A program made the position numbers and the translations under genes. Positions 2,171-36,529 of a stretch of DNA of 64,000 nt are shown here, in pieces (position 1 is the first letter of the stretch; every line of letters starts with the position of its first letter). The notes beneath the pieces are model-generated. The model worked only from the letters and a program-made list of their open reading frames with translations. It ran no database searches and was not told where the DNA came from. This stretch comes from Anaerolineae bacterium (lineage in GTDB: Bacteria > Chloroflexota > Anaerolineae > CG2-30-64-16). The stretch lies in contig JBBQRS010000009.1 in the NCBI GenBank assembly GCA_038214535.1, forward strand, positions 4,176 through 68,175, written 5' to 3'.

Positions 2171-4597
2171 ATGGCGAGACGACGGGCTAAACCCAAACCA
2201 AAAACCGGCCCTAACCTGGAGCAGTTGTTCCGTGGGGAGATCATCGGCGGCATCCTGGTGGTGCTGGCGATCCTCCTCATGCTGAGCCTGCTCTCGTCGA
2301 ACCGCGGGGAGTTTACGGGCGCGGTGGTTAACGGGCTGCGCGATCTGTTCGGCGTGGGCGTCTGGCTGGCGCCGCTGATCCTGGGGTTTGTCGGTGCATG
2401 GCTGGCGCTGCGCCACATCGCCGCCGACGATCCGATCTGGACGCGCCGGTTGATCGGCGTGTTCGCGCTTTTTCTCGTCGTCGAGAGCGTACTGCACATC
2501 CTGCTGCGCGACCGTTCGCTGCCCCCTGCCCCTTCCGGCGAGGCGGGCGGCGTGGTTGGTTCGCTGCTGGGGCAGGGCCTCGAAGACGCGCTGGGGCTGC
2601 CCGTGACCCTGACGCTGCTCTTCTTGCTGGCAGTTGGGATTTTAATCCTGATCGCCGGTTGGACCTCGGCCCAGATGGGGCAGACGCTGGCAGATAGCTG
2701 GGACGGCCTCAGGGGCGCGTTCAAAGGCCCCGACGGCAAGAACATCAATCCGCCGCTGCCGCTGGGTGAACCATCGCCGCTGAAAGAGTGGTGGCGGCAA
2801 TTGACGGCCGGCCGCGCCGCATCGTCCAAACCGTCGGAGGTCTTCCAACCATCTCCGCCGATTGCCATTAACCCGGCGCAATCTGCCAAAGCACAAACGC
2901 CGCCTTCGCCGCGCCCTTCGCTCTTTGCCCGCCCGACTACGCCTGCGACGGCTTCGCCGGCTGCGACCCGGACGCCGTCCGTAGAAACCCAGCCGCGCAT
3001 CGTGGGTGGGCGCGGGCAGACGTGGCGGCTGCCGGTGCTGGCGGAGATGCTCGAAGAAAGCTCGGAGGTGGATATCCAGAGCGATGACCTGCGGCGTCGG
3101 GCGCAGATCATCGAAACCACGCTGGAAGGCTTCGGCGTGCCGGTGCAGGTGGTCGAGGCGAACCAGGGGCCTGCCGTCACGCAGTTTGGGTTGCGCCCCG
3201 GCATCATCATACGCAAAGATCGCAAGGGCGAAGAAAAGCGCATCAAAGTCCGCGTCTCGCAGATTCAACAACTCTCCAACGATCTGTCGTTGGCGCTGGC
3301 GGCCTCACCGATCCGTATCGAGGCCCCCGTGCCCGGCCGCGACATTGTCGGGGTCGAGGTGCCCAACGTCCAGACGGCGCTCGTCGCCTTGCGCGGCGTG
3401 ATGGAGTCGGACGAATTTCGCGGGGCGCGTGGCCCGCTCACGATTGGGCTGGGGCGCGACGTTTCCGGCGCGCCCGCCGTCACCGATATGACCAAGATGC
3501 CGCACCTGCTCATTGCCGGGGCGACGGGATCGGGCAAGTCGGTGTGCGTCAACGCCATCATCACGGCGCTGTTGATGACGCATACGCCCGATACGTTGCG
3601 GTTCCTGATGATTGACCCGAAACGTGTGGAGTTGACCGTCTACAACGGCATCCCGCACCTGATTGCCCCTGTGGTGGTGGACGTGGAGCGCGCCGTGCCC
3701 GTGTTGCTGTGGGCGACGCGTGAGATGGAGCGTCGTTATAAGCTGTTTTCAAAGGCCGGGGCGCGCAACATCGAATCCTACAATGAAAAACTCGTGGCGA
3801 GCGGCGAACCGAGCCTGCCCTACATCGTCGTGATGATTGATGAGCTGGCCGACCTGATGCTCTCTGCGCCCGATGAGGTGGAGCGCCACGTTTGCCGGCT
3901 GGCGCAGATGGCGCGCGCCACGGGCATCCATCTGGTCATCGCCACGCAGCGCCCCAGCGTTGACGTGGTCACCGGTCTCATCAAGGCCAACTTCCCGGCG
4001 CGCATCGCCTTTGCCGTGACCTCGCAGATTGATAGCCGCGTGATCCTGGATACGCCCGGCGCGGAACAACTACTGGGCCGCGGTGACATGCTCTTCATGG
4101 CCCCGGACAGCAGCAAGCTCCATCGCCTGCAAGGCTGCTGGGTCTCGGATCGCGAGACGCAACACCTGGTGCGCTATTGGCGCGGCGCGCGGGCCTTTGT
4201 TGAGGACGGCGCGCCCGACGGGTTGCCGGTGGATGCGCTGGGCGCAACGCAGGCTGGGACGAGTGATGGGGCCGCGACCGGCGAGCTCGAGCCGCCGTGG
4301 TTGCCTGGGCAGGAAGCGCTGCAACAGCCGCTCTGGACCGATATGGCCGGGGTGGAAGCCAGCCTGTCGGGTAAGGATGACATGTATAACCAGGCGGTCG
4401 AAGAGGTGCGCAAAGCCGGGCGCGCCAGCGTGTCGCTGCTCCAGCGCCGACTGCGGATCGGTTATAGCCGGGCTTCGCGGCTGATCGAGGAGTTGGAGGC
4501 CGACGGCATCGTCGGGCCGGATCAGGGCGGCAGCCGCGGCCGCGAGGTGTTGCCGGATCAGGGCGAGGGTTCCGCGGCTGCGAGCTACGATGGGTGA
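2171..4597 (+). CDS. ftsK: DNA translocase FtsK: N-terminal TM domain, Pro/Ala-rich linker, RecA-like motor and a C-terminal gamma (winged-helix) domain.
   Basis: Walker A 'GATGSGKS' and Walker B 'VVMIDELADL' motifs. C-terminal 'SVSLLQRRLRIGYSRASRLIEELE' gamma domain. N-terminal hydrophobic helices. Confidence 0.95.
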   Translation: MARRRAKPKPKTGPNLEQLFRGEIIGGILVVLAILLMLSLLSSNRGEFTGAVVNGLRDLFGVGVWLAPLILGFVGAWLALRHIAADDPIWTRRLIGVFALFLVVESVLHILLRDRSLPPAPSGEAGGVVGSLLGQGLEDALGLPVTLTLLFLLAVGILILIAGWTSAQMGQTLADSWDGLRGAFKGPDGKNINPPLPLGEPSPLKEWWRQLTAGRAASSKPSEVFQPSPPIAINPAQSAKAQTPPSPRPSLFARPTTPATASPAATRTPSVETQPRIVGGRGQTWRLPVLAEMLEESSEVDIQSDDLRRRAQIIETTLEGFGVPVQVVEANQGPAVTQFGLRPGIIIRKDRKGEEKRIKVRVSQIQQLSNDLSLALAASPIRIEAPVPGRDIVGVEVPNVQTALVALRGVMESDEFRGARGPLTIGLGRDVSGAPAVTDMTKMPHLLIAGATGSGKSVCVNAIITALLMTHTPDTLRFLMIDPKRVELTVYNGIPHLIAPVVVDVERAVPVLLWATREMERRYKLFSKAGARNIESYNEKLVASGEPSLPYIVVMIDELADLMLSAPDEVERHVCRLAQMARATGIHLVIATQRPSVDVVTGLIKANFPARIAFAVTSQIDSRVILDTPGAEQLLGRGDMLFMAPDSSKLHRLQGCWVSDRETQHLVRYWRGARAFVEDGAPDGLPVDALGATQAGTSDGAATGELEPPWLPGQEALQQPLWTDMAGVEASLSGKDDMYNQAVEEVRKAGRASVSLLQRRLRIGYSRASRLIEELEADGIVGPDQGGSRGREVLPDQGEGSAAASYDG

Positions 4598-32025: not shown

Positions 32026-32054
32026 TTGACATCGAACACCCGTTCTGATATGAT
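32026..32054 (+). promoter_or_regulatory. Consensus sigma70 promoter of lexA: TTGACA, 17-nt spacer, TATGAT.
   Basis: TTGACA at 32026-32031 and TATGAT at 32049-32054. A LexA box lies in the spacer. Confidence 0.6.
32034..32045. promoter_or_regulatory. LexA (Cheo-type) box 1: GAACACCCGTTC, inside the lexA promoter spacer.
   Basis: GAAC-N4-GTTC palindrome of the Gram-positive-type SOS box class. Confidence 0.55.
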
Positions 32055-32061
32055 GCATTCA

Positions 32062-32073
32062 GAACATTCGTTC
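32062..32073. promoter_or_regulatory. LexA (Cheo-type) box 2: GAACATTCGTTC, just downstream of the -10 element.
   Basis: Second GAAC-N4-GTTC palindrome, 8 nt after the -10 hexamer. Confidence 0.55.
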
Positions 32074-32112: not shown

Positions 32113-32829
32113 ATGGCATTTACCCGCATGACACAAATTAGCGAGCAACTGACCGAAATCGAGGCGCGCGTCCTGTGCTACCTCGAACAGACTCTGCGGC
32201 CCGGTTTCTGCCCCAGCCGTGAGGAACTCAGCCGCGCCGCCGGGCTGGGCAGCCGCGGCTACCACATCAATCAGGTCTTGAAAAGCCTGGATGAGAAGGA
32301 ATTCATCGAGCTGACGCCGGGCCGGTCGCGTTCGATCGCCCTGTTGCGCCGCGCCGATGGCCGACCCTTCAGCTTCAACACCATTTGGGCGCCGGTGGCG
32401 GGCATCATCGGGGCGAGCTGGCCCCGCGACACCGCGACCGAGGATGACAATGTCTTCGCCGATGAGGCCGTGGAGTTGACCCGCAGCCTGGTCGGCGGGC
32501 ACGAAGATGTCGTCACGCTGCGCGTATCGGGCGACTCCATGATCGAGGCCGCCATCAACGACGGCGATCTGGTGGTGATCTCTCCATCGGATGAGATTCG
32601 CAACGGCGATCTGGTGGCGGCGAACGTCAAAGGCGTGGGCCGCACGTTGAAATACTTCTATCGGCATAACGACAACGTGGAGTTGCGCCCGGCGAATGCG
32701 AAGATGAAGCTGGATCCGATGATCTATCATCCGAACCTGGTGCGCATCGAGGGCAAGGTACTGCTCGTCATTCGCCAGGTCACGGCTCCGGCAGATGGCC
32801 GGGCATCGCTGAATCTGATCGCCGCGTGA
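32113..32829 (+). CDS. lexA: LexA repressor (wHTH plus S24 peptidase domain).
   Basis: N-terminal wHTH collinear with E. coli LexA. 'VSGDSM' catalytic Ser and a downstream Lys (TLKYF). Start at MAFTRM. Confidence 0.9.
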   Translation: MAFTRMTQISEQLTEIEARVLCYLEQTLRPGFCPSREELSRAAGLGSRGYHINQVLKSLDEKEFIELTPGRSRSIALLRRADGRPFSFNTIWAPVAGIIGASWPRDTATEDDNVFADEAVELTRSLVGGHEDVVTLRVSGDSMIEAAINDGDLVVISPSDEIRNGDLVAANVKGVGRTLKYFYRHNDNVELRPANAKMKLDPMIYHPNLVRIEGKVLLVIRQVTAPADGRASLNLIAA

Positions 32830-32868
32830 GCGCCGCTCCTCCAGGAGCGCCATCCTTCCTGCCGGAGT

Positions 32869-33960
32869 TTGACCATGGCTCGCAAATACGATATGCAGGC
32901 CGCCCGCATCGAATCGGTGCTGGGCGCGCACAAAGTGCCCGCCCGTGTCTGGCAGGCGACCATTACGCCGCGCTTCGTGCGGTTTGACGTGACGACGGCG
33001 ATCGGCACGAAAATCAACAAGGTGAGCAATCTGGCCGAGGAACTGGCGTTCTCGCTGGGCGCGCGCAGCACGCGCGTCTATCGTGAGGGCGGAATGCTGC
33101 ACGTGGAGGTGCCGCGCGATGCGCCGCGAACCGTCGAGCTCCTGGAACTGTGCGGCGGGTTAAGCACCGTACCGCCTAACTGCGCCGTGCTCGGCATTGA
33201 TGAGGGGGGGCTCCCTTTGCTGCTCAGGCTCGATAGCCCGGACGTGGCGCACGTCCTTCTGGCCGGCACGACGGGCAGCGGCAAGACGGCGCTCTTGCGC
33301 ACGTTGCTGGTTTCGCTGGCAATGCACAACCATCCCGGTCGCCTCCAGGTCGTCCTGATTGATCCCAAGGCGCGGGGGCTGACGGCGCTCTCTGCGTTGC
33401 CGCACGTCTGGCGAGGGCAGGGCGTCGTCCACGATGTGGCGGAGGCGGGCGAAGTGCTGGATGTCCTCGTCGCCGAGATGAGCCGGCGCGATGTGGCCCG
33501 CGTGTCGCTGCCGCGGCTGGTGGTGGCGATTGACGAACTCGCGGATCTCCTCGTGACCGGGGGCAAGTCGTTGGCCGATGCCGTGACGCGGCTGACCCAA
33601 CGTGGCCGTGAGGCGGGTATCCACGTGGTGGCTGCCACGCAGCGGCCTTCGTCGGCCCTCGTCGGCGGCATGATGAAGGCGAACTTCCCGGTGCGGCTGG
33701 TGGGCAGCGTCGCCAGCCCCGAAGATGCAAAGGTCGCATCGGGGCTGGCCGGCACGGAAGCGGAACGGCTTCTGGGCCGCGGCGATTTTCTGCTGGTCGC
33801 CAAGGGGCAGACCATCCGGTTTCAGGCCGCCTATGCGGCCACCCCTGAACTGGAGGGCATTCTGAATCGCATCCGGGCCGGGGGGCGTAAGCGACGGTCG
33901 TGGCGGCCTGAATCCGAGAGCCGCGGCGTGCGGCGGCTGGCGGCAGGTAGACCGTCATGA
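32869..33960 (+). CDS. Soluble FtsK/SpoIIIE-family ATPase carrying the motor alpha/beta domains only, with no TM domain and no gamma domain.
   Basis: 'LLAGTTGSGKTALLRT' Walker A and 'VVAIDELADL' Walker B. 'IHVVAATQRPS' and 'LLGRGDFL' parallel ftsK motifs 'IHLVIATQRPS' and 'LLGRGDML'. No hydrophobic N-terminus. Confidence 0.85.
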   Translation: MTMARKYDMQAARIESVLGAHKVPARVWQATITPRFVRFDVTTAIGTKINKVSNLAEELAFSLGARSTRVYREGGMLHVEVPRDAPRTVELLELCGGLSTVPPNCAVLGIDEGGLPLLLRLDSPDVAHVLLAGTTGSGKTALLRTLLVSLAMHNHPGRLQVVLIDPKARGLTALSALPHVWRGQGVVHDVAEAGEVLDVLVAEMSRRDVARVSLPRLVVAIDELADLLVTGGKSLADAVTRLTQRGREAGIHVVAATQRPSSALVGGMMKANFPVRLVGSVASPEDAKVASGLAGTEAERLLGRGDFLLVAKGQTIRFQAAYAATPELEGILNRIRAGGRKRRSWRPESESRGVRRLAAGRPS

Positions 33961-34325
33961 AGAAGATCATCATCCCCGTCATGCTGGGTTTTGGCGTGGC
34001 AATGGCGCTGATCATCGGCCAGCGGATGAGCACCGACGCGATGGCCGTCGTGATCGGGGTCGTCGTCGGGGTGGCGTCGAGCGTGCCGACGAGCATCCTG
34101 TTGATGGCGCTGTTGCGGCGTGAGCGCGCCGGCATGACGAGTTGGCGACAGGAAGCGCCGCCTCCGCCACAAATCCAGACGCCGAATTTCATCGTCCTGA
34201 ACCCATCTGATCTGGTGAATGGACGGACCTCGCAGATGCAGGTTCCCATGCCGCCGCCCAACTATGGGATGGATGGCGGCCTACGCCGGCTGCGCGTCGT
34301 CGGCGACGAGGACGAGTGGAGCTAA
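33957..34325 (+). CDS. Small membrane protein with two N-terminal TM helices and a Pro-rich C-terminus.
   Basis: 'IIIPVMLGFGVAMALIIG' and 'AVVIGVVVGVASSVPTSILLMALL' helices. ATGA start overlaps the upstream stop, indicating translational coupling. Confidence 0.6.
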   Translation: MKKIIIPVMLGFGVAMALIIGQRMSTDAMAVVIGVVVGVASSVPTSILLMALLRRERAGMTSWRQEAPPPPQIQTPNFIVLNPSDLVNGRTSQMQVPMPPPNYGMDGGLRRLRVVGDEDEWS

Positions 34326-34365
34326 CCACGCCCCCAAGAGGGCGTTTGATTTCTAAGGAGTCCTC

Positions 34366-34722
34366 ATGCTAAACAAAGACACGAATCCGGTGCAGATCTC
34401 GGTCCGCCCCGATGGGTTCACGCCGCAAGCATTTCGATGGGAAGACAGACTGGTGCGGGTGCTGGCGGTGGAGCGCATCCGCACTTTCGGCACGGAGCGG
34501 CGTTACCGCGTGGTCACTGCCGAGGGTCGCTTCGAACTGAGTTACTATGCCGATGCCGGACTGTGGTATGTGCGGTGCAGCCCGACGCGGCTGGGGCGCG
34601 CCCTGTGCCGGTGGGAGGCCACGCCACGCTACGCCTTGCCGATGTGGCGGCGACGCGCGCATCGCCGACCGGCAGGAAGGATCAAGGGGGCGCGAAATGC
34701 AGATGGGCTTGCTCTGGTTTGA
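34366..34722 (+). CDS. Hypothetical protein of 118 aa.
   Basis: ORF with coding-like composition in operon context. Its Arg-rich C-terminal tail overlaps the next ORF, so the true end is uncertain. Confidence 0.4.
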   Translation: MLNKDTNPVQISVRPDGFTPQAFRWEDRLVRVLAVERIRTFGTERRYRVVTAEGRFELSYYADAGLWYVRCSPTRLGRALCRWEATPRYALPMWRRRAHRRPAGRIKGARNADGLALV

Positions 34723-34960
34723 CAGCGACCCCGGTCGCGATGTGATCGCCAAGGCGCGGGATGCGGCGCGACGTTACCGCGAGAAATTCGGCGCACTGCC
34801 CGATACCTGTTATGTCAATATTGATGCGCTGACCGGGGCACAGTTCATCGAGTTAGAGGGGGCCGGAGGGCCGACGTTGCGCGTGGTTCCGGCGGACAAC
34901 ATCCTGGCGCATCACTTCTGGGTGGGGGTCGAGGAACGGCGGGAGCCCAGCGCGGCGTAG
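34697..34960 (+). CDS. Hypothetical protein of 87 aa.
   Basis: ATG at 34697 preceded by AAGGGGG. 'MQMGLLWFDSDPGRDVIAKARDAARRYREKFG...'. Confidence 0.4.
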   Translation: MQMGLLWFDSDPGRDVIAKARDAARRYREKFGALPDTCYVNIDALTGAQFIELEGAGGPTLRVVPADNILAHHFWVGVEERREPSAA

Positions 34961-34971
34961 AGTCGGACGCG

Positions 34972-36015
34972 TCAGGCGAGGGCGAGTTGGGCCAGCAGCA
35001 CGTCCATCGCCTCGCGGTCCGTCATCTTGCCGGTCTTGATCGCCTCGTCGGCGGCCAGCACGTGTTCCAGCGCGCGCTGGAGGCCGGCAAAGGTGTGACG
35101 TGCGGCCTGGTTCAGTAGTTTGTTAGCCGTCCAGTCGGGAATCCCCAGCGCCTGCCCCACTTCCTGCGGGCGAGCCGCCCTGGCCTGCATCGCCTTCGCC
35201 TGAAGCAACAGCCGAAACTGCCGCGCGATCATCGTCAGGATGATAAGCGGTTGTTCGCCGTCAATATCGAGCATATGGCGCATCAGGCTTGCGGCGCGGC
35301 GCGTATCGCCCATTCCCAGCGAATCCACCAGGTCGAAAATGTTGGCGGCGCGGGTGGCGGCGACGAGCAGGCGCACGTCGGCGCGGGTGACCGTTCTTCC
35401 GGCGGCGTAATCGGTCAGCTTGATCAACTCCTGGTCGAGTTGACGCAGGTCGTCGCCCACGAATTCGGCCAGATCGTTGACGGCTTCACCGGCCAGTTTC
35501 AGCGTGTGCTGCGCCGCGCGCGCGCGAATCCAGCCGGTCAGGTCGTTGCGCCCCGGTTTCTGACACAACACGATGCGAGCCTGGTTGGATCGTTGCAGCT
35601 CCATGAGCCGGCGCAGCAGCGGCCCGCTGCCTACGGCGTCCTCCTCGATCAACACCAACTCGGTCGTCTCAGGGATCTGCTCGATGTATTCGATGAAGCG
35701 GCGCGCCTCGACGGCGGCGGAATCGGTAGAACCTGTGTCCTCTGCGTCTGTCTGATCCTCTCGCTTCGAGCCGCCCCGTGACTTGCGTGACCCCGCAAGC
35801 CGGCGCACCAACCCCTCGATGATGACCAGGCGATGCTCCGCCAAAAAGGGCAGGGTCTCGCAGACGTTCTCGATCTCGGCCAGGGTGGCCTTGCGCCCGT
35901 CAATCACGTGGGTATTGACTTCCAGAAAAGCGGGGTCGTCGCCCAGCCCGGCGCGCAGGCTCGCCAGCGCCTCGGTGCGCAACAACTCCGCCGGCCCGTG
36001 AATCAACGTAATCAC
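34972..36015 (-). CDS. holA: DNA polymerase III subunit delta.
   Basis: 'MITLIHGPAELLRTEA...', the typical HolA N-terminal and C-terminal domains, about 345 aa. Confidence 0.8.
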   Translation of the reverse strand: MITLIHGPAELLRTEALASLRAGLGDDPAFLEVNTHVIDGRKATLAEIENVCETLPFLAEHRLVIIEGLVRRLAGSRKSRGGSKREDQTDAEDTGSTDSAAVEARRFIEYIEQIPETTELVLIEEDAVGSGPLLRRLMELQRSNQARIVLCQKPGRNDLTGWIRARAAQHTLKLAGEAVNDLAEFVGDDLRQLDQELIKLTDYAAGRTVTRADVRLLVAATRAANIFDLVDSLGMGDTRRAASLMRHMLDIDGEQPLIILTMIARQFRLLLQAKAMQARAARPQEVGQALGIPDWTANKLLNQAARHTFAGLQRALEHVLAADEAIKTGKMTDREAMDVLLAQLALA

Positions 36016-36037
36016 CGAACCACCTCAATAAACGCCA

Positions 36038-36529
36038 TCAAGCTGAAATGACCACGCGGTGGCAAACGAGCGGGCCGGTGTCGCAGCGCTTCACGTCAAC
36101 GACGCGCAAGCCGCCGACCTGTGGCGAGGTGGTCACCTTCGCCTGCGCCAGCCGCCCCAGCGGCGGGGCCACCATCAGCGCGGCGGTCGCCGCCAGCACT
36201 GCGCCGGGGGCGCGATCCCACAGCGAACGTTTGCTATCTCCGGCGGTAAGCAAGACGGCCAGGCCGCTCAACACAGCCGCCGTCACGAGGTTGGTGCCGC
36301 AATTCGGGTGAACGGCCAACCGCGCCTCGCCGGCCTCCAACCGCGCCAGGGCCTCTTCAGCGGCGGCGCGCAGCTCCATCGTCGCCACGTCGCCGTAAAC
36401 GACGAATCCTCTGGAGTCGCTGCGCGCAAATAGCTGAACCTGCGGCGCATACCGGCTCAACAGGGTCAGGGTCGCATGTTCGATGCCATGATGCTGGCGC
36501 ACGGCTTGTACCCAGGAACGTTGCGTCAT
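36038..36529 (-). CDS. Conserved hypothetical protein.
   Basis: ORF of 163 aa with a GGGAGG Shine-Dalgarno 8 nt upstream. No recognisable motif. Confidence 0.5.
   Translation of the reverse strand: MTQRSWVQAVRQHHGIEHATLTLLSRYAPQVQLFARSDSRGFVVYGDVATMELRAAAEEALARLEAGEARLAVHPNCGTNLVTAAVLSGLAVLLTAGDSKRSLWDRAPGAVLAATAALMVAPPLGRLAQAKVTTSPQVGGLRVVDVKRCDTGPLVCHRVVISA

Follow-up and report, generated by a model that had tools for sequence, protein, structure and literature searches.

In Bacillus subtilis, SftA and SpoIIIE keep DNA out of closing septa, and small membrane proteins whose genes neighbor lexA typically serve as the SOS division inhibitors of Firmicutes and Actinobacteria. In Escherichia coli, ftsK is listed among the genes with a known SOS box (PMC6590174). 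In Streptomyces, the small membrane protein SmeA is encoded beside the FtsK-like protein SffA, and both are targeted to sporulation septa (PMC4255298); according to the title of a reference, it is SmeA that targets SffA there. The locus analyzed here lies in a 64,000-nucleotide stretch of an Anaerolineae bacterium (phylum Chloroflexota; contig JBBQRS010000009.1, positions 4,176 to 68,175), which we call the window. In it, lexA is followed by a gene for an FtsK-like motor and a gene for a small protein with two transmembrane (TM) helices. An original prediction, made from the sequence without database searches, had described these genes as one unit under SOS control. The gene content of the locus, its motifs, the conserved linkage of its genes and their conserved LexA boxes are observed directly, and we consider it very probable that the genes form an SOS-controlled module of an FtsK-like motor and its membrane partner.

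The lexA gene (32113..32829, + strand) begins with an ATG preceded by the Shine-Dalgarno sequence GAGGAG and encodes 238 amino acids (aa), with a winged helix-turn-helix DNA-binding domain and an S24 self-cleaving peptidase domain. The FtsK-like motor gene (32875..33960, + strand) encodes 361 aa that comprise the alpha and beta (RecA-like ATPase) domains only. The original prediction recognized this motor but had it begin at TTG 32869, with a product of 363 aa. The start is likely to be ATG 32875, which is preferred because homologues start there, with the TTG as a possible alternative. The gene for the two-TM partner (33957..34325, + strand) encodes 122 aa and overlaps the stop codon of the motor gene in an ATGA; both the predicted coupling, through this overlap, and the two hydrophobic helices of the product were confirmed. 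As also predicted, there is no promoter in the 45-nt gap between lexA and the motor gene. No terminator was found there either, including between 32829 and 32869, and the gap folds no better than shuffled sequence (z = -0.05).

The sole sigma-70-like site between 31800 and 35200 is a promoter at 32026..32054 on the + strand, with TTGACA and TATGAT separated by 17 nt, a TG before the -10 element and 11 of 12 matches. Its bases are identical in the two closest relatives, L004 and L013. The two GAAC-N4-GTTC boxes that had been noted in the lexA promoter are indeed present, and both are perfect. Operator 1 (GAACACCCGTTC, 32034..32045) lies inside the promoter spacer, and operator 2 (GAACATTCGTTC, 32062..32073) lies just downstream of the -10 element; no strand applies to either. 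When the window is compared with its relatives, the arms of the operators are invariant and the N4 is variable. Across the 64-kb window, three perfect boxes were observed versus 0.79 expected. The third (33040-33051) falls within the coding sequence of the FtsK-like gene, over the E-L-A-F codons of a conserved LAEELAFSLG motif, and is probably a chance by-product of codon choice and not an operator. A search of the window for other SOS genes through one-mismatch boxes gave no enrichment (25 found versus 20 expected). The canonical ftsK of the same organism (2171-4597, 808 aa) has no perfect LexA box upstream, and its sole one-mismatch site, at 2219, is inside the coding sequence.

The comparative evidence for SOS control comes from a genome scan of one genome per species, with a narrowed motor alignment as the query, which returned 80 loci. 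One of these is from a distant Omnitrophota; the rest are from Chloroflexota-type metagenome-assembled genomes (MAGs) named as Anaerolineae, Anaerolineales, Caldilineae/Caldilineales, Ardenticatenia or Thermoflexia/Thermoflexales, or generically as Chloroflexia/Chloroflexota. Gene counts were obtained by iterative searches on the ORFs of these loci, 78 of which served for the motor/TM pair and 74 of which were usable for boxes. The stretches immediately upstream of lexA or the motor gene make up 4.8% of the sequence of the 74 loci, yet they contain 86 of the 106 perfect LexA boxes (binomial p ~1e-93). The search for the lexA/ftsK-like arrangement in relatives that the original prediction had proposed found lexA directly upstream in 26 of the 74, and 25 of these 26 have boxes at the lexA promoter. 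In 29 loci without an adjacent lexA, a perfect box lies at most 300 bp from the start of the motor gene. Weaker sites were sought in 17 loci, most of them with neither arrangement, and in 12 of these a one-mismatch box lies at most 250 bp upstream of the motor gene. The family consensus is A-GAAC-R-N-N-Y-GTTC-T, with the flanking A/T at 76% and the inner R/Y at 89%, positions that are outside the search pattern. Paired boxes in the related loci are typically 22-36 bp apart, and the boxes of relatives sit inside TTGACA...TATAAT-like promoters.

The same design of -35 element, box and -10 element was found in 120 metagenome loci, whose first downstream genes were classified after a contig scan with the pattern TTGACA-N2-3-GAAC-N4-GTTCT-N2-TAT. 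The positive controls appeared as LexA (21 loci), RecA (2), LysM-containing YneA-like proteins (5) and DUF6504 together with DnaE2-like PHP/PolIII-alpha genes of ~1030 aa (5). The LysM-containing small membrane proteins of the YneA type came from low-GC contigs only (GC 0.27-0.41), and none came from a contig of window-like composition. The scan also recovered genes of the module itself: the motor (8), the TM partner (1) and, from three families taken up below, an 87-aa protein (6), a Cys-rich protein (4) and other DUF6504 genes. Two further families follow such a promoter-plus-box: an alkyltransferase-like (ATL-like) family of 122-135 aa (PF01035; 6 loci: L155, L174, L176, L211, L214 and L250) and a LuxR/GerE-type family of 130-141 aa (7 loci: L158, L164, L195, L197, L228, L241 and L248). 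The promoter boxes and the metagenome scan together thus indicate that the motor/TM pair and the small genes are recurrent LexA-box targets in several operon arrangements, and, as far as sequence comparison can support it, SOS control of the module is well supported. The original prediction of SOS control has strong comparative backing; the last two genes of the unit may be only partly co-transcribed, as discussed below.

The repressor encoded in the window scores 118.7 bits against the LexA model TIGR00498, above the cut-off of 110.95 by a narrow margin, and its inter-domain linker is longer than usual. The N-terminal winged helix matches PF01726 (E 6e-7, residues 11-73), the peptidase domain matches PF00717 (E 1e-21), and the cleavage site A96-G97 and the Ser/Lys dyad of S142 (in GDSM) and K180 can be read in the sequence. 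GAAC-N4-GTTC is the LexA motif reported for Firmicutes and Actinobacteria, and variations of it have been reported in Chloroflexi (PMC4951493). With two such boxes in its own promoter, to which it is predicted to bind, the window LexA would be autoregulated. Ten related genomes have tandem lexA paralogs, two per locus, 5' of the FtsK-like gene (L009, L010, L020, L021, L027, L036, L041, L045, L046 and L067), with a GAAC-N4-GTTC box or boxes for each paralog. Some irregular copies were also encountered. In two relatives of 70% identity (L002:7463-7999 and L003:3728-4264), the S24 repressor ORF has a length of only 166-178 aa, and its alignment with LexA begins at residue 52, which may reflect partial loss of the DNA-binding domain or a miscalled start; both LexA boxes are kept in these two loci. 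L004 and L013 are two contigs of one MAG, CAVOHP01, and carry syntenic copies of the region, each 92-93% identical to the window; the pair looks like a strain duplication or an assembly error rather than paralogy. L013 has frameshifted ORFs, and L001 has a fragmented lexA.

The motor matches Pfam FtsK_alpha (E 2e-10) and FtsK_SpoIIIE (E 1e-34; for PF01580, the FtsK/SpoIIIE superfamily, 120 bits versus a cut-off of 24), and it matches the solved FtsK of Pseudomonas aeruginosa with an E of 3e-43. Compared with the 808-aa FtsK of the window itself, it is collinear with residues 310-671 at 32% identity, and the alignment ends before the FtsK C-terminal domain. Alignment and Pfam thus agree with the earlier description of a paralog that is collinear with the motor of ftsK (2171-4597), has Walker A and B and TQRPS motifs and lacks TM and gamma domains. 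The motifs are GTTGSGKT (Walker A), DE (Walker B) and ATQRPS. No 19-residue window of the protein has a Kyte-Doolittle hydropathy above 1.6, and the alpha domain begins at the protein start; no C-terminal gamma domain, the winged helix that in canonical FtsK reads KOPS and activates XerD, was matched in Pfam, and only ~25 basic residues follow the beta domain. The protein scores 143.5 bits against the canonical FtsK equivalog NF007615, far below the cut-off of 1566, and by these profile scores it is a member of the FtsK/SpoIIIE superfamily only, outside canonical FtsK.

More than 4800 homologues of the motor were found. Identity is at least 70% in the best 120 clusters, whose lengths are 348-484 aa, and this degree of identity indicates strong purifying selection. 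In 71 of 71 family members, G131, G134, G136, K137, T138, D220, E221, R245 and Q256 are invariant. R245 corresponds to the Arg finger (P. aeruginosa R620) and Q256 to the phosphosensor. The pore-loop residues R257, K268 and K286, equivalent to P. aeruginosa R632, K643 and R661, are basic in 68, 67 and 65 of the 71; the roles of all these residues are taken from cryo-EM and simulation papers on P. aeruginosa FtsK (PMC7321959, PMC9410874). Since a trans-acting Arg finger is sensible only in an oligomeric ring, an active hexameric double-stranded DNA (dsDNA) motor is the most economical reading, and it is most likely, judged from these residues, that the protein is such a translocase.

The partner has 488 homologues, all of similar size, and belongs to no Pfam family. 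Its two hydrophobic helices form a very highly conserved TM hairpin, which is followed by a variable Pro-rich linker and a tail with the conserved motifs NxIVLNP and DGGxRRLRVVG..EW. In the AlphaFold2 model, the helices span residues 5-23 and 26-62, and the tail is of low confidence. The positive-inside rule (MKK... at one end, ...RRER at the other) suggests that both ends are cytoplasmic, so that the tail could reach the soluble motor. No matches were found in Pfam, NCBIfam, PHROG or PADLOC, a profile search of the PDB was empty, and neither LysM nor any other extracytoplasmic effector domain was detected with Pfam and NCBIfam. In ~69 of 78 related loci, the ATPase gene is followed, in most cases immediately, by a gene for a partner homologue. 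The 4-nt overlap of the called motor and partner ORFs, ATGA in the window, recurs in at least 11 relatives, and in the related loci the partner is hardly ever present without the motor gene. As a predicted small membrane protein encoded beside lexA and apparently controlled by LexA boxes, it shares this one feature with the SOS division inhibitor class.

The surroundings of the pair are conserved as well. On long contigs, the gene order repeats as S24 repressor, FtsK-like gene, a gene of ~120 aa, a gene of ~85-97 aa and then convergent holA, DUF6391 and mutS2. In about one-third of the loci, lexA lies 5' on the same strand. holA and the DUF6391 gene adjoin the module in ~14 loci of different orders, the window copies lying at 34972-36529 on the - strand, and in four other loci clustering of the flanking ORFs placed rpsT 5' of the FtsK-like gene. 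Neither an integrase nor a phage gene recurred in this clustering. The synteny with housekeeping genes over long range argues for a host function, and on this comparative evidence the module is a conserved host gene set and not a one-off.

Conjugative and mobile relatives nevertheless have to be considered. Against the TraB model NF041214, the motor scores 27.7 bits, with a cut-off of 800, and NCBIfam ranks FtsK first (143 bits) and TraB last. By tblastn against plasmids, it is 30-36% identical over ~90% of the query to chromosomal-type FtsK and 27-28% identical over 50-53% of the query to FtsK-domain proteins of Streptomyces plasmids. By these profile and BLAST scores, a TraB or conjugative identity of the window motor, the grouping that the original prediction had named as evidence against itself, was rejected at the sequence level. 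A mobile-element origin of the window locus was likewise rejected, as integrase, tRNA and att-like direct repeats are all absent from the locus and no GC shift or other compositional break is seen there. The expectation of a nonmobile setting thus held for the window locus and for 78 of the 80 genome loci. It did not hold for all relatives, some of which, at 43-63% identity, reside on integrative or prophage-like contigs. The two exceptions among the genome loci (L070 and L081) share element flanks, and neither has a box or lexA.

Motors of the family, 42-63% identical to that of the window, were also found by a scan of IMG/VR, on 13 contigs (L091-L103), and on 9 of these the TM partner is adjacent. 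None has LexA boxes in promoter position or an adjacent lexA; a weak S24-like match was seen on one contig, 4 kb upstream. Neighboring genes on L092-L103 encode a tyrosine integrase, excisionase/RDF, ParA-like protein, replication initiator, primase-helicase, PAPS reductase and DNA methylases, and no capsid or terminase was identified among the scanned flanking ORFs. Fourteen of 16 motors from elements or viral contigs have a C-terminal extension of 66-152 aa, whereas in chromosomal copies the median number of residues that follow the motor is 13. No Pfam domain was found in the extension, which is a candidate site-recognition domain. In neighbor-joining trees, computed without bootstrap, canonical FtsKs and two phage references fall outside a clade of all Anaerolineae copies, and within it the element copies are interleaved with the chromosomal ones, a result that is provisional because the trees have no bootstrap. 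As read from these contigs, the motor/TM pair is a two-gene unit common to the host SOS operons and to integrative elements or prophages of these bacteria.

Motor-only proteins are also encoded by phages (for example, gp183 of Mycobacterium phage Bobby, with 36% identity over 94% of the query; PHROG 1358, E 2e-47). In the Bobby genome (L087:1297-3802), the motor-only gene gp183 lies two genes downstream of gp185, a gene for a Ku-like double-strand-break-binding protein. The PHROG matches and the PADLOC matches (SspH, mad8 and HerA) span only the shared ATPase fold, and membership in a defense system was rejected for this limitation of the PADLOC matches.

Beyond the pair, the compact five-gene set on the + strand, as recognized by ORF listing, sequence reading and domain scans, ends with the two further small ORFs of the original prediction. 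Both are real, but they are not anonymous, for one is DUF6504-like, and the start of the last has been corrected. Convergent holA and DUF6391 genes flank the set on the 3' side and a divergent sortase gene on the 5' side. Between the TM gene and the last two genes is a weak terminator-like hairpin (34328..34355, + strand; ACGCCC-CCAAGA-GGGCGT, followed by the U-rich tail TTTGATTTCT). Its fold is not superior to that of shuffled sequence (z = -0.85), so it is at most a partial terminator, and because of it the DUF6504-like and 87-aa genes may be only partly co-transcribed with the rest.

The DUF6504-like gene (34366..34722, + strand), preceded by the Shine-Dalgarno sequence AAGGAG, encodes a 118-aa basic protein with the domain at about residues 5-71 and an Arg-rich tail. 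Alone, the window protein has no Pfam match at E <=0.01. Relatives pass the gathering score of PF20114 (37.6, 29.5 and 25.0 bits versus 24.2), and hhalign aligns the window-type with the DUF6504-type subfamily at 97.7% probability (E 2e-12). On plasmid 1 of Deinococcus deserti (L089:3047-8347), and also in L090:3104-5195, an operon headed by lexA has DUF6504 with a Y-family polymerase gene on one side and dnaE on the other, and the domain is thus SOS-linked in a second phylum. In the metagenome loci L180 and L238, a LexA box is followed by DUF6504 and then by a PHP/PolIII-alpha gene of ~1030 aa. DUF6504 has the look of an SOS mutagenesis cassette component that has so far gone undescribed; no paper on it was found in the searchable open-access literature. 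The last gene (34697..34960, + strand) most likely starts at ATG 34697, which is preceded by the Shine-Dalgarno sequence AAGGGGG, and not at 34547, giving a product of 87 aa. This protein is conserved, with the motifs GLLWFD.DP, CYVN and HHFWVG, and its predicted fold is confident (pLDDT 85); its matches were uninformative. The 118-aa family occurs in 21 related loci and the 87-aa family in 24, each in about one-quarter of the motor loci. Some relatives have an additional gene: in 10 loci (L009:3789-4226, L010:5548-5985, L071:5274-5912 and seven others), a Cys-rich gene of ~150 aa (CxHR...C...CxxCP, no Pfam family) lies between lexA and the FtsK-like gene, and in the metagenome loci L172, L233, L261 and L265 it lies directly behind LexA-box promoters. 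By this placement, it is a further unnamed SOS gene.

The explanation that best accounts for the whole is that the locus encodes a LexA-repressed, SOS-induced, membrane-tethered DNA translocase that clears DNA from septa, and that it belongs to the core SOS regulon of Anaerolineae-type Chloroflexota. We put this forward tentatively, and the septal clearance role within it, which relies on analogy to known translocases, is possible at a strength somewhat short of even. We infer induction, oligomer formation, motor/partner contact, site of action and substrate as follows. In an undamaged cell, LexA dimers would occupy the two operators that overlap the -35/-10 promoter and would repress lexA, the motor and the coupled partner, as well as, in part at least, the genes for the DUF6504-like and 87-aa proteins. 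Upon DNA damage, RecA filaments would induce LexA self-cleavage at A96-G97 and the operon would be derepressed. The 361-aa motor would then form a hexameric dsDNA translocase without a membrane domain or a sequence-reading gamma domain, and the cytoplasmic tail of the partner would bring it to the membrane, probably at division septa. There the motor, with no direction set by sequence, would pump DNA and so clear or rescue chromosomes that are unsegregated or damaged from the closing cross-walls of the filament, as SOS-induced ftsK does in E. coli and SftA and SpoIIIE do in B. subtilis.

Several observations weigh against this proposal. The motor has no gamma domain and hence no known means of choosing direction, which makes directed chromosome clearance less obvious. 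The equivalent of P. aeruginosa loop-I K657 is not conserved (Ala or Pro in 59 of 71); the window's own FtsK likewise has no Lys at this position. The predicted induction is read from the operators, the predicted contact between motor and partner from gene linkage, and the tail that would make this contact is of low confidence when modeled in isolation. In lineages with tandem lexA genes, one LexA may be a module-specific and not a global repressor. Given the weak terminator-like site, co-transcription of the last two genes is uncertain. Finally, the presence of the same pair on integrative elements may mean that its ancestral job was DNA transfer rather than chromosome segregation.

This last point leads to a different explanation, in which the motor/TM pair is a domesticated Tra/Spd-like device for dsDNA transfer that came from the integrative elements of filamentous Chloroflexota. 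Controlled by LexA, the device would carry DNA of the chromosome or of an element through the cross-walls between neighboring cells of the filament after damage, for example as a repair template. The gene set of the IMG/VR contigs resembles that of actinomycete integrative conjugative elements, which need one FtsK-like protein and small membrane Spd proteins, and the carriers are filamentous, multicellular bacteria. The element-borne pair beside integrase, excisionase, ParA, Rep and methylase genes on the IMG/VR contigs, and the interleaving of element and chromosomal copies in the neighbor-joining tree, are also as this explanation would have it. However, the motor is far closer to FtsK than to TraB, the chromosomal copies are without the C-terminal extension, all but 2 of the 80 genome loci are without the element flanks, neither a transfer origin nor a peptidoglycan-binding domain was identified, and the long-range synteny with housekeeping genes suggests a host function. 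A domesticated transfer device thus seems unlikely, and its specific version, in which the lexA-linked pair arose from the elements' transfer module and would serve SOS-induced sharing of dsDNA within the filament for recombinational repair, seems a little less likely still. The family members on integrative elements would also fit a selfish or defensive remnant, that is, an integrative element or prophage that has decayed, leaving an exclusion or anti-phage pump still governed by its LexA-like repressor and playing no part in the biology of the host chromosome. Generic FtsK-domain matches to SspH, mad8 and the phage "moron" family PHROG 1358, and the tandem LexA paralogs of some relatives, could be taken the same way. 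But the PADLOC and PHROG matches cover the ATPase fold only, the repressor scores above the LexA equivalog cut-off and has a LexA-type motif, and the motor retains its box where lexA lies elsewhere. Strong purifying selection, synteny with holA, rpsT and mutS2 across orders and the lack of integrase, att repeats, tRNA and GC shift at the locus make a remnant very improbable.

The membrane partner could instead be the principal actor. In an SOS division checkpoint, it would be the counterpart of YneA, SosA, ChiZ, SidA and DidA and would block the divisome through its TM hairpin, with the ATPase as an accessory that may sense septal DNA or help release the block. The unusual conservation of the hairpin fits a specific intramembrane contact, and the recovery of YneA-like genes on low-GC contigs only would leave room for such an inhibitor in this lineage. 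Such a role is unlikely in our estimate, since the partner hardly ever occurs apart from the motor gene, its sequence shows neither LysM nor another extracellular domain, and its tail is predicted to be cytoplasmic; moreover, a pure checkpoint protein would leave unexplained why the pair occurs on mobile elements without LexA boxes. Alternatively, the motor could be a repair-coupled translocase that acts with the DUF6504-like and 87-aa proteins, stripping proteins, remodeling stalled forks or feeding a nuclease or translesion complex in the fashion of HerA-type motors, while the TM protein only localizes or regulates it. The position of DUF6504 between the Y-family polymerase gene and dnaE in the D. 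deserti lexA operon, and before DnaE2-like genes behind LexA-box promoters in five metagenome loci, is consistent with this, as are the occurrence of the DUF6504-like, 87-aa and Cys-rich genes as separate LexA-box units and the proximity of the mycobacteriophage motor-only gene to a Ku-like gene. We consider it improbable nonetheless: the DUF6504-like and 87-aa genes accompany only about one-quarter of the motors and hence are not obligatory, the motor has no linked gene for a nuclease or a polymerase, and the partner that is obligatory is a membrane protein.

If an SOS-induced, membrane-tethered translocase does clear septal DNA in these organisms, then a large, environmentally abundant filamentous group would handle the clash between DNA damage and septation unlike the model organisms. 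It would use neither a sole SulA/YneA-type inhibitor nor an added ftsK promoter, but a dedicated pump and membrane adaptor in the lexA operon. A natural "motor-only" FtsK with a separable membrane tether would be useful for studying localization and orientation without the gamma domain. The analysis would also provide a first SOS gene set for this lineage, consisting of lexA, recA, the FtsK-like/TM pair, DUF6504 with DnaE2-like genes, the 87-aa and Cys-rich genes and the ATL-like and LuxR-like families; recA and the latter two families come from unassigned metagenome contigs. And a stress operon of the host would be connected with the module by which integrative elements of these bacteria are transferred or maintained.

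How does the module compare with the systems described? As in E. coli, an FtsK-type translocase would be part of the LexA regulon. There, however, an extra promoter acts on a single full-length ftsK (membrane, linker and alpha-beta-gamma domains), whereas in the window the canonical ftsK has no perfect box, and a separate motor-only paralog is in the lexA operon together with a separate membrane protein. The motor resembles SftA in being a second FtsK-family translocase without a TM domain of its own; SftA helps to keep closing septa free of DNA, including after DNA damage. SftA differs in that it is much larger, keeps its gamma domain, has no known dedicated TM partner and is not known in a lexA operon. 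In SmeA-SffA, too, a small membrane protein is encoded beside an FtsK/SpoIIIE-like protein, and both are septal, but that pair is under developmental (sporulation) control and is not a reported SOS target, and its gene order is reversed, with the membrane-protein gene first. Actinomycete TraB and Spd are alike in that a single FtsK-like motor and small membrane proteins move dsDNA between filamentous cells, and the element-borne relatives lie beside int, xis, rep and parA. The window motor differs in its score against TraB, its lack of a C-terminal recognition domain and its lack of a mobile-element context. With the SOS division inhibitors (YneA, SosA, ChiZ and DivS; SidA and DidA), the module shares a small, LexA-controlled membrane protein beside lexA; the 122-aa protein differs, as far as its sequence can tell, in having no LysM or extracellular domain and in being paired with an ATPase. 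The phage motor-only proteins of PHROG 1358 likewise have an alpha-beta motor from residue 1 and no membrane domain, but they fall outside the Anaerolineae clade in the neighbor-joining trees, have no homologue of the TM partner annotated beside them and are not LexA-linked.

Thus, the parts of the module are of known kinds, namely LexA, a member of the FtsK/SpoIIIE superfamily and a small membrane adaptor, and an SOS-controlled FtsK has its precedent in E. coli. The original prediction knew of no described lexA-linked ftsK paralog, and we, too, found no paper on one in the searchable open-access literature. What is apparently new is a motor-only paralog that lies in the lexA operon, or is boxed together with it, across the sampled Anaerolineae-type Chloroflexota. 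Apparently new as well, again with nothing on them found in that literature, are its obligatory two-TM partner family, the link to DUF6504 and to other unnamed SOS genes and the sharing of the pair between host SOS operons and integrative elements.

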